Shown here one piece after another: positions 1,514 to 49,984 of a stretch of 49,984 nt of DNA. Source of the stretch: a virus (lineage: Duplodnaviria > Caudoviricetes); the IMG/VR virus record IMGVR_UViG_3300025110_000020, positions 1 to 49,984 of that record. One strand, given 5' to 3'. The notes beneath the pieces are model-generated. The model was given only the letters and a program-made list of their open reading frames with translations. It was not told where the DNA came from and did not search any database. A program made the position numbers and the translations under genes. Position 1 is the first letter of the stretch. Each line of letters begins with the position of its first letter.

Positions 1514-1606
1514 CTATGCGTAAGCTACTTTTCTTACTGGCTTCGAATAGCTAAGACCTCTGTAGGTTAGCTTGACACTTGGTGTCTTGACTGCTGTTTT
1601 AGACAT
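1514..1606 (-). CDS. DUF4278-like YRG peptide (30 aa)
   Basis: Translated by hand: MSKTAVKTPSVKLTYRGLSYSKPVRKVAYA; LTYRG..Y motif; GGAG RBS at 1614-1617. Confidence 0.8.
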   Translation of the reverse strand: MSKTAVKTPSVKLTYRGLSYSKPVRKVAYA

Positions 1607-1622
1607 GGATTAACTCCAGTAA

Positions 1623-1680
1623 TCAGTGCCCCCGTCGTATGACACTGGGTGGGTGCAACCTCTCATAAAGGTCCGACGAT
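1623..1680 (-). ncRNA. Glutamine-II (downstream-peptide) riboswitch-like RNA, variant sequence
   Basis: Minus strand AUCGUCGGACCUUUAUGAGAGGUUGCACCCACCCAGUGUCAUACGACGGGGGCACUGA: P1 CGUCG/CGACG, P2 ACCUUU/AGAGGU, pseudoknot CAGUGUC/GGCACUG; directly 5' of a YRG peptide. Confidence 0.6.
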
Positions 1681-1689
1681 TATACCTAT

Positions 1690-1732
1690 ATCCTAACAAA
1701 CTGTATCAATAGATACTGTATCACCCTGATAC
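1690..1732 (-). promoter_or_regulatory. Promoter with NtcA box(es)
   Basis: GTA-N8-TAC palindrome GTATCAATAGATAC at 1703-1716; adjacent GTATCA-CCC-TGATAC (N9 spacing) at 1718-1732; extended -10 TGnTAGGAT on the minus strand at 1698-1690. Confidence 0.65.
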
Positions 1733-1745
1733 CATTTATTAAATC

Positions 1746-2039
1746 TTAATCTTCTACGAAGTTAGGAATTGGTGGTTGATCAGGAACAGGCACTATCTCT
1801 TTGTAGATAGGCGGTTCATATGCAGGAGGGTGAGGTAAAGGTATAAATCTCGGACGAGGGCGTAGCAATCTGAACCCGTCATACAATGTATATTCCACTC
1901 TATCCACGCTTCTACTGAGACGACGATAAGAATTAGCCATCATAAACTGACCAGTTACAACCGCAACAGTTGCTATACCCCAGAAGATGTAGTAAGCCTT
2001 GGATTTCACTTGCTTGTATTCGTACTCGTTCTTATCCAT
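1746..2039 (-). CDS. Cyanophage membrane protein, Pro-rich C-terminus
   Basis: KSKAYYIFWGIATVAVVTGQ TM segment; start probably MDKNEY at 2039. Confidence 0.7.
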   Translation of the reverse strand: MDKNEYEYKQVKSKAYYIFWGIATVAVVTGQFMMANSYRRLSRSVDRVEYTLYDGFRLLRPRPRFIPLPHPPAYEPPIYKEIVPVPDQPPIPNFVED

Positions 2040-2157
2040 GGTGAAGTTGATCGATATCACATACTGTACAAGTTATGTAGATCCTATCAACTTTTCTTAG
2101 TTAAGATATTGCATCACTATTCCAGCAGGTATAAGATAGTAACCCAGCGGAAAATAA

Positions 2158-22615: not shown

Positions 22616-23182
22616 TTATTGATCAGGAAGTAAGTAAAGCATTTCACTTATTTTCTTTGCTGCTACATCAGCAATCTTATCAACCGGACCATCGGAATAT
22701 GTGATGATGACAGAGCCCCATGCATCTGTCTGGCCTGTTATAGGACAGGCTCTTGATAAGAATTTTCTATTAGGTAATTCCGTACATTGAGCCAAAACAA
22801 AATGCCCTATAACTTCCTCATCTCCCGGCATCCAATAACCTGTTGGAATAGGATCAACGGATGTTCTAGGAAAACTAGCTATAGGAACAATGTTTCTAGC
22901 ATCAGGCCAGTCATACAACCAGACAGATTTTATATCTCTGTTCTTATTAAGGATGCCACTTAGAAGAGCTTCTACTTTTAGTTTCTTACTTGGATCTTCC
23001 TCGAACAAAACAGTGATTGCTTCCTCGGCTCCATCATCAATAACTTTTGACTCTGTATAAGCTTTAAAACCAATTAGACCTATGGCTGAAATAGCAGATA
23101 AGCCAACGATCTTCATTAAAAACTTACTCCAATTTTGTTCTGGAGAAATGATGTTTTTAACTGTTTCTATTGCAGCTTTCAT
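22616..23182 (-). CDS. TM protein with GAF-like soluble domain
   Basis: TM near N-terminus; ACPI...WGSVII pattern. Confidence 0.6.
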   Translation of the reverse strand: MKAAIETVKNIISPEQNWSKFLMKIVGLSAISAIGLIGFKAYTESKVIDDGAEEAITVLFEEDPSKKLKVEALLSGILNKNRDIKSVWLYDWPDARNIVPIASFPRTSVDPIPTGYWMPGDEEVIGHFVLAQCTELPNRKFLSRACPITGQTDAWGSVIITYSDGPVDKIADVAAKKISEMLYLLPDQ

Positions 23183-26437: not shown

Positions 26438-27181
26438 CTATTCGAAAGGAATAAATAAATCACGACTATAGAAATATCCTCTTCTACCTTGGAGTCTATC
26501 AGGAGTAGTCCACTCTTCTTCGATAGGTAAATAACAGAACCAACCAGTAGCTATATATTTGGTCTCTGTAGGACTGACGATTCCACGATGAACGTGAGTC
26601 CAGTCAGAAGGCCATATCACGGTTAATCCTTTTTGCGCTTGCACTTGAAAATCTTGATGGTACCATTCTGTTCCACCTCCATCTTTTACGTCATTTAAAT
26701 ATGTCATCCATACTAAATGCCTAGATATAACGTTTGGATGCAAGGAAGCTCTCTCTGTATGCCATTTAGTGAAACCTTCTTTGGGTTTGTATTTTTGAAT
26801 ATTAAATTGTTCGAAAGCTGCATTACCCCATGGTTGTTGACATTTTTCACAATTAGGAAATTTTTCACAGTAATCATCCAAGACCTCGTTTAATGCTTTG
26901 TTAAACTTGGCAACCCTTGAGTCTTTTACAACATATGGCACTCCCAAGTCTGTTGATGTTTTACCATCTTCCTGCTTATCGCCCTCATCTCCATTAGCCG
27001 TATGGCCTGGTCTTTTGAGACATATAAAATCACCTCTACCTTCATAAGGAATTACATGTCTTCCCATGGGGAATTCTTCGAAATATTCAATCAACCCATC
27101 ACATAGATCTAGGTCAATTTTCCTACCATAAATAAATTCTTTATGAGTAAATTGCATATTTATTCTGCAGTAGATCCACAA
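26438..27181 (-). CDS. 2OG-Fe(II) oxygenase (prolyl-4-hydroxylase-like)
   Basis: NIQKY, WHTE, YLNDV..GGGTE, WTHVHRG, KYIATGW; true start probably MQFTHK. Confidence 0.9.
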   Translation of the reverse strand: MWIYCRINMQFTHKEFIYGRKIDLDLCDGLIEYFEEFPMGRHVIPYEGRGDFICLKRPGHTANGDEGDKQEDGKTSTDLGVPYVVKDSRVAKFNKALNEVLDDYCEKFPNCEKCQQPWGNAAFEQFNIQKYKPKEGFTKWHTERASLHPNVISRHLVWMTYLNDVKDGGGTEWYHQDFQVQAQKGLTVIWPSDWTHVHRGIVSPTETKYIATGWFCYLPIEEEWTTPDRLQGRRGYFYSRDLFIPFE

Positions 27182-27816
27182 TGTTCAAAGGCGTCTTTCA
27201 TCCTTGCATTAAAGGAGACACTAATACGAGGTGTATCTCCTTGATAACGGCGCACCCCATGCTCCAAGTAAGAAGGAAATAGTAATAATGTTCCAGTCCT
27301 AATATTATCTATGGTATAAGATGGTACCCACCCATGCAAAGGAAGTCCCCAATGTCCTGAGACAGGAGTATTAATTGTAAATTTACCTGTTTCATTGTTT
27401 GAAGGATATTGATAATAATAAACACCTGAAAAATGACTAGGTAAATGATTGTGTGTATGAGCAAAATCATTATTATCTAATTTAGTAACCCATGAAGCAG
27501 TAATGTTCATATGTGTTACCAATCGCTCTTTACCTGCCTCATCTACAGGAGTACCTAATCCCTCTCCTATTCCTAGCATGTATTGAATAATTTCATTCTT
27601 CACAATAGAAGGAAACTTCTTTAATCTTGAAAATAAACGATTACCAAAAGTCGGATCACTCAATTTATGTGTTTTACCCCAACCATCGTTATATTCAAGA
27701 GTCTCTTTTTCTATGGCTTGTTTTAACTCTTGTTGTATCTCCTCGAAATACGGCTCTTCATCTAAATCTGCTCTAGCTATATAAGTCGGGAAATAAGTCC
27801 AAATCGTTCTACCCAT
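27160..27816 (-). CDS. 2OG-Fe(II) oxygenase (TIGR02466-like)
   Basis: HNH..SHFSGVYY, FPSYLEHGV, RISVSFN. Confidence 0.9.
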   Translation of the reverse strand: MGRTIWTYFPTYIARADLDEEPYFEEIQQELKQAIEKETLEYNDGWGKTHKLSDPTFGNRLFSRLKKFPSIVKNEIIQYMLGIGEGLGTPVDEAGKERLVTHMNITASWVTKLDNNDFAHTHNHLPSHFSGVYYYQYPSNNETGKFTINTPVSGHWGLPLHGWVPSYTIDNIRTGTLLLFPSYLEHGVRRYQGDTPRISVSFNARMKDAFEHCGSTAE

Positions 27817-49154: not shown

Positions 49155-49984
49155 TTAGCCGACTGCAGGTGCAGTTAAAGCTACGTCGCTAGAACCAGCC
49201 GAAGCTAAATCTAGAGGGAAGTTATGAGCATTACGCTCGTGCATAACTTCCATTCCGAGGTTGGCTCGATTGAGTACGTCTCCCCATGTTGGGACGACCT
49301 TACCATTTGAGTCTACAACCGATTGATTAAAATTAAATCCATTTAGGTTGAAGGCCATGGTGCATATACCCATTGAGGTGAGCCATATACAAATAACAGG
49401 CCAAGAAGCAAGAAAGAAGTGAAGACTACGAGAGTTGTTGAAACTTGCGTATTGGAAGATGAGACGACCGAAGTAGCCATGGGCTGCAACGATGTTGTAT
49501 GTCTCTTCTTCTTGTCCAAACTTGTAACCATAGTTCTGTGAATCAAGTCCTGTAGTTTCACGAATAAGTGAAGATGTAACCAGTGAGCCATGCATAGCAC
49601 TAAACAAGGCACCGCCAAACATACCCGCCACGCCTGCCATGTGGAATGGATGCATGAGGATATTATGTTCCGCCTGAAAGACAAACATAAAGTTGAACGT
49701 GCCTGAAATGCCGAGAGGCATACCGTCACTGAATGATCCTTGTCCGAAAGGATAGACGAGGAATACAGCAAAAGCTGCGGAGACTGGCGCTGAGTAAGCA
49801 ACACAGATCCAAGGCCTCATCCCAAGTCGATACGACAATTCCCATTGGCGTCCCATATAGGCGGAGATCCCGATGAGAAAATGGAACACCACGAGTTGAT
49901 ATGGTCCTCCGTTATAGAGCCACTCGTCGATGGTTGCAGCTTCCCAGATTGGGTAGAAGTGAAGACCGATTGCGTTAGATGACG
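49155..49984 (-). CDS. psbA: Photosystem II D1 protein (5' truncated by window)
   Basis: Continuous frame [16 protein letters not shown]...[14 protein letters not shown] with C-terminal extension; Gln at position 130. Confidence 0.99.

Follow-up and report, generated by a model that had tools for sequence, protein, structure and literature searches.

The window (the whole 49,984-nt stretch of viral DNA analysed) carries on its minus strand, from 1681 to 1623 and 25 nt before the gene of a 30-residue peptide with an LTYRG motif, a glutamine-II-like RNA whose fold is that of the known riboswitch and whose ligand contacts are intact. L-glutamine is likely its ligand, and translation of the DUF4278-like peptide is likely switched on when the cyanobacterial host is nitrogen-replete, a reading to which we assign a probability of about 85%. 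Judged from its sequence, the element is probably a new flavour of a known sensor and not a new sensor. The observations behind this reading are the fold elements, the retained contacts, and the covariation of P1, P2 and the outer pseudoknot pairs; to these come the conservation of the peptide and of a −10 box, and a GTA-N8-TAC box that many relatives share.

The record is that of a cyanophage. It carries psbA (49155–49892, minus strand, cut by the window end) and two 2OG-Fe(II) oxygenases (26438–27816, minus strand). When its major head protein was compared with 50,697 phage records, a single match resulted, to the counterpart in Synechococcus phage S-EIV1 (70% identity). Glutamine riboswitches have been reported in phages (available portions of PMC9004378 and PMC9964418). 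A phrog_2000 gene (1746–2060, minus strand) lies just upstream of the cassette and also flanks it at a related locus, L165; a blastn search of 1480–2100 against the phage records matched this upstream ORF only. S-EIV1 gave no RF01704 match and no good match to our covariance model; a weak covariance-model match at 22809–22862 (E 0.17) lies within an ORF, lacks the 3' core and was rejected.

In accordance with the RF01704 match and with the numbering of the crystal structure (C1 = 1678), the aptamer (1623..1681) adopts the P1-PK-P2 topology, all of its parts being on the minus strand. The 5' strand of the pseudoknot helix PK (C1 G2 U3 C4 G5, 1674..1678) pairs with 1637–1633, as its counterpart does in 60 of 60 rows of the alignment described below. 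It is followed by the P1 hairpin (1657..1673, including the closing pair G6.U17), identified by folding and RNAalifold, by the linking strand G18 C19 A20 (1654..1656), of which G18 is a ligand contact and C19 pairs with G41, and by the P2 helix (1647–1641 with 1630–1624; 1624..1647), which encloses the 3' strand of PK (A33 U34 A35 C36 G37 A38 C39 G40 G41 G42, 1640–1631). A Shine-Dalgarno-like GGAG (1617–1614, minus strand), identified by sequence, precedes the ATG of the peptide at 1606. The preliminary description had listed the motifs CGUCGG, UGCA, and ACGACGG and left their strand unstated; they are present on the minus strand, read 5' to 3' from 1678, at 1657–1654, and at 1638–1632, respectively. 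Its assignment of P1, P2, GCA, and pseudoknot to the architecture of the Downstream-peptide class holds as well, with a full-length RF01704 match and the fold elements in place. Folding yields P1 and a 7-bp P2 at 1623..1681, and the folding energy shows no excess over shuffles (z −0.12), the pseudoknot being outside the energy model.

In the Rfam comparison that the same description had proposed, a cmscan of 1400–1900 matched Glutamine-II (RF01704) over the full model (1–60) at 25.1 bits (E 4.1e-4), short of the 33-bit gathering score. When the genome was searched with this family only, the same match had E 9.6e-6, and the 1681–1623 element is the sole RF01704 match in the 49,984-nt record. 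Across the whole window, all Rfam families stay below their gathering scores. Glutamine-I (RF01739) gave no match at E<=10 in the scan of 1400–1900, and the three-way junction with an E-loop that marks glutamine-I is not found in the P1-PK-P2 topology of the element.

The crystal structure (PDB 6QN3; available parts of PMC6698751) allows the core to be compared base by base. There, PK is made up of G36:C5, A37:U4 with G35 as its triple partner, A38:U3, C39:G2 with G18 as its triple partner, and G40:C1, followed by G41:C19, whereas A6 and C17 are coplanar without a bond. The bound glutamine is held by C1 N4, G18 O2', C39 N4, and G40 O6, glutamate is discriminated against through G18 O2' and C1 N4, and water molecules on the bound metal contact G18 together with phosphates 37 and 38. 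According to the same source, all PK nucleotides other than U4:A37 and C5:G36 are more than 97% conserved, and glutamine-I uses the same binding pocket as glutamine-II.

The window RNA is unchanged at C1, G2, U3, G18, C19, A20, A33, A38, C39, G40, G41, and G42, and differs from the crystal at C4:G37 (in place of U4:A37), G5:C36 (in place of C5:G36), A35 (in place of G35), and G6.U17 (in place of A6.C17). All of the glutamine contacts (C1, G18, C39, and G40), together with C19:G41 and A33.G42, are thus intact by comparison with the available parts of PMC6698751; what has changed are two compensatory swaps at the far end of the pseudoknot (4:37 and 5:36), the triple partner 35, and the 6/17 pair. 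Because the swaps fall on exactly the less-conserved PK pairs and the contacts are kept, the “altered core” corresponds to the pseudoknot's variable rim, outside the pocket. The earlier view that the ligand-binding core itself was altered is therefore not sustained, every crystal-defined contact base being retained. The compensatory changes that accompanied this view are real, but they had been placed in P1 and actually lie in the glutamine-II PK helix; this helix is the equivalent of the glutamine-I P1, and the swaps are outside the glutamine-II P1 hairpin. Nearest-neighbour stacking of PK amounts to −7.9 kcal/mol in the canonical form, −9.4 kcal/mol in this core, and −7.6 and −10.3 kcal/mol in the two single swaps, the strongest being the C4:G37/C5:G36 core (−10.3 kcal/mol). 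The changes at 4:37, 5:36, 35, and 6/17 would be structural, making PK ~1.5 kcal/mol more stable, and would at most shift the affinity or the switching threshold.

Relatives were collected by pattern scans of viral, genome and metagenome collections, filtered for helices or for a YRG peptide. The first scan gave 13 loci, 12 of them chance and one real, and in later scans 8/41, 3/21, and 52/120 passed the helix or peptide filter, among the matches listed. At least 30 distinct same-core aptamers were obtained, the window's included; two loci that are the window's own DNA (L135 and L343) were left out before counting, and a locus on an actinomycete contig (L313), which passes the helix filter and has no YRG peptide, was taken as chance. 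A looser scan added at least six further distinct same-core sequences with G at position 34 (at least 36 in all). Given 25 same-core sequences and no structural guide, RNAalifold recovered P1 and P2; nine of the 11 pairs show changes on both sides. In an alignment of 60 rows (30 variant, 4 single-swap, and 26 canonical), 95.8% of cells pair, versus 71.8% in shuffles and 35–49% when slid, figures that are not probabilities, the rows being related and pattern-selected. The five PK pairs are 100% paired in these rows, a matter of compatibility more than an independent test given the pattern selection; position 4:37 is CG in 31 rows and UA in 29, and 5:36 is GC in 33 and CG in 27. The statement in the preliminary description that covariation keeps the fold is upheld: P1, P2, and the outer PK pairs covary among homologs.

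Most homologs were collected with core patterns, so the invariance of the core among them is by construction. To escape this circularity, an aptamer-independent search was made by the upstream promoter motif alone. It returned 98 loci, nine of which have a YRG peptide downstream, and eight of these nine have an aptamer. All eight aptamers keep C1, G2, U3, G18, C19, A38, C39, G40, and G41, and also A20, A33, and G42; the loci are close relatives, which limits the depth of this test. Five of the eight are also matched by a covariance model; the model termed R1 was trained on the window copy, and its score there is circular. When 18 same-core loci were compared with Rfam, nine reached 33 bits (best 46.9), six were below, and three were unlisted at E<=0.5.

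The neighbour genes of the same-core loci, where recognisable, are phage genes. None of the 21 matches in the genome collection, searched with one exact pattern and one genome per species, lies in a cyanobacterial genome, a scope that leaves absence from hosts unproven; the two real matches sit among phage-like genes in marine archaeal bins. These two contigs (L304 and L315) carry the cyanophage cassette and are probably mis-binned phage DNA. Canonical glutamine-II leaders occupy an estimated ~1,800 stretches in viral contigs, some two orders above the variant.

The canonical comparison consists of 100 distinct viral aptamers, among the matches listed in 5 of 64 parts of the collection. In this sample U4:A37/C5:G36 is present in 97 and U4:A37/G5:C36 in three, and position 35 is G in 100/100 though A was allowed. 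Intermediates exist on both sides: the C4:G37/A35 swap alone, with C5:G36, occurs at two loci (L104 and L484), and the G5:C36 swap alone at three (L189, L218, and L296). Every passing C4:G37 aptamer among the matches listed has A35, the scan having allowed G or A. Since A35 always accompanies C4:G37 and both single swaps exist, position 35 tracks 4:37, and 5:36 flips independently. The 6/17 position is G-C in 12 of the 30 variants, A-U in nine, G.U in seven, and A.C in two (28/30 paired), versus A.C in 96/100 canonical viral copies.

The founding alignment of 2010 (PMC2864571, supplement 5, in the portion available) holds both single swaps. The C4:G37/A35 string occurs in it 66 times, the five places inspected being family rows, and the C4:G37/C5:G36 PK pairs also occur in NC_007335; the G5:C36 rows include NC_005070, NC_005071, and NC_007513, with G6.U17 and A6-U17. 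The double swap is absent from the available portion of this supplement, by a term search under several spellings. Each single swap is, by this alignment, already known, and the combination only is previously unlisted. The four accessions are Prochlorococcus and Synechococcus chromosomes. A description of the core variant was not met with in the literature found, within which coverage of subscription papers is limited.

The downstream peptide (1514..1606, minus strand) is basic, 30 residues long, and DUF4278-like, resembling the N-terminus of IF17. Its match to DUF4278 (PF14105) is weak, with 16.2 bits and E 0.014 over 12 residues, below the cut-off of 25.3. A YRG ORF, with its ATG 23–27 nt past the core, is found at 27 of the 30 same-core loci (among the matches listed); these peptides are 30–57 residues long, 22 of the 27 match PF14105 at E<=0.1, and one exceeds the cut-off. 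Variant and canonical phage copies have the same downstream gene class at the same spacing. The downstream gene thus fits the Downstream-peptide class, as had been proposed, though the window peptide itself stays under the Pfam cut-off. Host DUF4278 peptides of this size are likewise without the GS-binding C-terminus of IF17 (PMC6212724, available parts). With at least 30 distinct sequences sharing the core, and 27/30 followed by a correctly spaced YRG peptide, the RNA element at 1681–1623 is confirmed, at the level of sequence, as real and beyond chance. We note that four G34 same-core aptamers (L440, L442, L444, and L515) precede YRG peptides of a distinct type, 55–75 residues long with cysteines and a Trp-Gly tail. 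Just past the peptide stop, a 105-nt stretch (1409–1513) is skipped by RNA-library contigs of a relative and is therefore variable among close phages.

Upstream of the aptamer, a predicted sigma-70-type extended −10 box, TG-n-TAGGAT (1690..1698, minus strand), is recognized by its conservation in relatives; a generic promoter scan did not list it. A TAN3T hexamer starts 14–18 nt before C1 in 30/30 variants (5.5 expected by shuffle), 19 of which also have the TG extension, and in 29/98 canonical viral copies (9.3 expected), among the matches listed. We infer a transcription start near 1683, ~5 nt before C1. Contigs from three metatranscriptome runs (at most two samples) cover 1514–1677 at 95–99% identity and nothing upstream, which fits weakly with a start near C1; these are low-depth contigs of a relative, without a control stretch, and were left uncounted.

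Seven nucleotides upstream of the −10 box lies an NtcA-type box, GTA-N8-TAC (1703..1716, minus strand), centred ~−26 from the predicted start and hence at a predicted repressing position: boxes near the −10 element or the start site are repressing in the available parts of PMC6212724 and PMC6316151, and NtcA sites have been reported in cyanophage genomes (PMC3037559, in part). GTA-N8-TAC occurs within −45..+35 of C1 in 20/30 variants (0.6 expected by shuffle), versus 2/98 canonical viral copies (1.6 expected) among the matches listed; a perfect box is missing in 10/30 relatives, and since the 30 variants fall in roughly five related groups, neither these nor the −10 counts are 30 independent events. 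A second, imperfect NtcA-like palindrome, GTA-N9-TAC (1718..1732, minus strand), seen in the sequence, is conserved in the window's sub-group. The two palindromes are one base apart, and the resulting TGATACAGTA junction is invariant in two promoter groups that otherwise differ (the window, L165, L146, and L158); they may be tandem NtcA sites or the site of another regulator. In one lineage (L341, L352, L359, L360, and L104), GTA-N8-TAC is located inside the P1 hairpin, and L352 and L360 carry the P1 loop in opposite orientations, each with a perfect box. At a further locus (L538, minus strand, after match 301–324), NtcA-type and −10 boxes stand directly before a 51-residue YRG peptide gene without an aptamer; with 9 nt from the −10 box to the ATG, its message would be nearly leaderless.

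The palindromes could instead be RNA hairpins or the operator of a phage protein, which would leave the riboswitch as the sole nitrogen input. The window holds 13 GTA-N8-TAC matches, about chance level, and NtcA binding leaves the tandem boxes with their fixed junction unexplained. We consider this unlikely, however, since the outer GTA/TAC are fixed while the inner bases vary without compensation, and since the box is kept at three places (~−38, the window type; ~−28, where it overlaps the −10 box; and +5 or +11 within P1, off the axis of the hairpin), all of them repressing by the rule given in the available parts of PMC6212724.

In the glutamine-responsive reading that we favour, host RNA polymerase would start ~5 nt before C1, near 1683. 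When nitrogen is scarce, 2-oxoglutarate would activate host NtcA, which would then occupy the box as a repressor; when nitrogen is plentiful, glutamine and a hydrated Mg ion would bind in the major groove of PK, fixing the G18>G2:C39 triple and the C19:G41 pair in place and making the ribosome site accessible. Glutamine binding, the direction of switching and the occupancy of the box by NtcA we infer from the family, by analogy. An NtcA-off, riboswitch-on arrangement would make sense for a ligand that signals ample nitrogen, as glutamine does and 2-oxoglutarate does not. Constrained equilibrium folding gave no consistent release of the Shine-Dalgarno sequence on binding, either in the variant (0.35 free, 0.31 bound, n=30) or in canonical copies (0.34 free, 0.37 bound, n=97), and the ON mechanism is therefore taken from the literature. 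An NtcA box precedes the DUF4278 gene of MED4, the type-2 leader of which raises GFP after ammonium (available parts of PMC6212724 and PMC6316151), and, according to the primer table of PMC6212724, the canonical 5' strand opens each of the two UTRs cloned there.

A more elaborate possibility, which we regard as doubtful, is a phage-restricted glutamine-II sub-class in which the rebuilt 35>4:37 triple and the stiff PK shift the response (toward tighter binding or, in the extreme case, toward a different nitrogen metabolite) and, with a relocatable NtcA operator, form a two-input gate, such that S-EIV1-like phages would express the peptide only within a set host-nitrogen window. It is more improbable still that the all-G-C outer PK and the paired 6:17 fold without ligand, giving a constitutively locked leader and passing nitrogen control to the NtcA box. 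The PK stacking, 1.5 kcal/mol stronger than canonical, is in line with such a leader, as are the minimum-energy folds obtained without constraints for several leaders, among them that of the window, in which the PK strands already form a helix, the far commoner NtcA box in the variant sub-family, and the locus with box and YRG peptide but no aptamer (L538). However, a locked scaffold would not need the unpaired and tertiary bases G18, C19, A20, A33, and G42, which are kept in 8/8; the even stronger C4:G37/C5:G36 core (−10.3 kcal/mol) is a regular family member, for example NC_007335 in the accessible part of the 2010 alignment; and a perfect box is lacking in a third of relatives.

New ligands in variant riboswitch classes usually go together with altered contact bases and a different gene context. 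The suggestion of the preliminary description that the ligand may differ (glutamate, 2-oxoglutarate, or another amino-acid-like compound) could draw on the joint difference of five core-adjacent positions in at least 36 distinct sequences, on the absence of the combination from the available portion of the 2010 alignment, on the metal waters at phosphates 37 and 38, through which an alteration of the 35>4:37 triple could change the shape of the pocket rim (PMC6698751, available parts), and on a promoter and NtcA box of its own (20/30 versus 2/98 canonical phage copies, among the matches listed), yet it is very improbable, as no contact base is changed, the glutamate discriminators G18 O2' and C1 N4 are both present, single-swap intermediates occur in phage loci and each in chromosome records of that alignment, and the downstream gene class is unchanged.

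Set beside known systems, the element shares with glutamine-II (RF01704; 6QN3) the P1-PK-P2 order, C1:G40, G2:C39, U3:A38, G18, C19:G41, and A33.G42, and the distance of 23–27 nt from the start codon of a short YRG peptide; it differs in C4:G37/A35, G5:C36, a 6/17 position that is mostly paired in the phage variant, and a window score of 25.1 against 33. Loci of the Prochlorococcus MED4 yfr6/PMM1846 type (PMC6212724 and PMC6316151, in part) similarly combine an NtcA box in a repressing position, a sigma-70-type promoter, a glutamine-II leader and a short DUF4278-like peptide. There the NtcA box is on the start site, whereas the phage box is centred ~−26, and here the cassette is phage-borne, with a variant PK and a peptide of only 30 residues below the Pfam cut-off. 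Synechocystis gifB (IF17), with its glutamine-I leader (RF01739), has the same ligand pocket and the same NtcA-off/glutamine-on logic, here predicted, but its leader is a three-way junction with an E-loop in place of a pseudoknot, and IF17 has a C-terminal GS-binding part that the phage and sub-family peptides lack.

If the glutamine-responsive reading is true, its value would be modest. The four combinations of the two outer PK pairs would be completed, and the three-way covariation of the 35>4:37 triple would be useful to structure models. RF01704 would be extended to phage copies missed by standard annotation (9 of the 18 checked are under the cut-off). The natural series of canonical form, two single swaps and double swap would allow the tuning of a low-affinity riboswitch by PK stability to be measured, and the 30-residue peptide would be a minimal case for the DUF4278-like peptides of picocyanobacteria and their phages.
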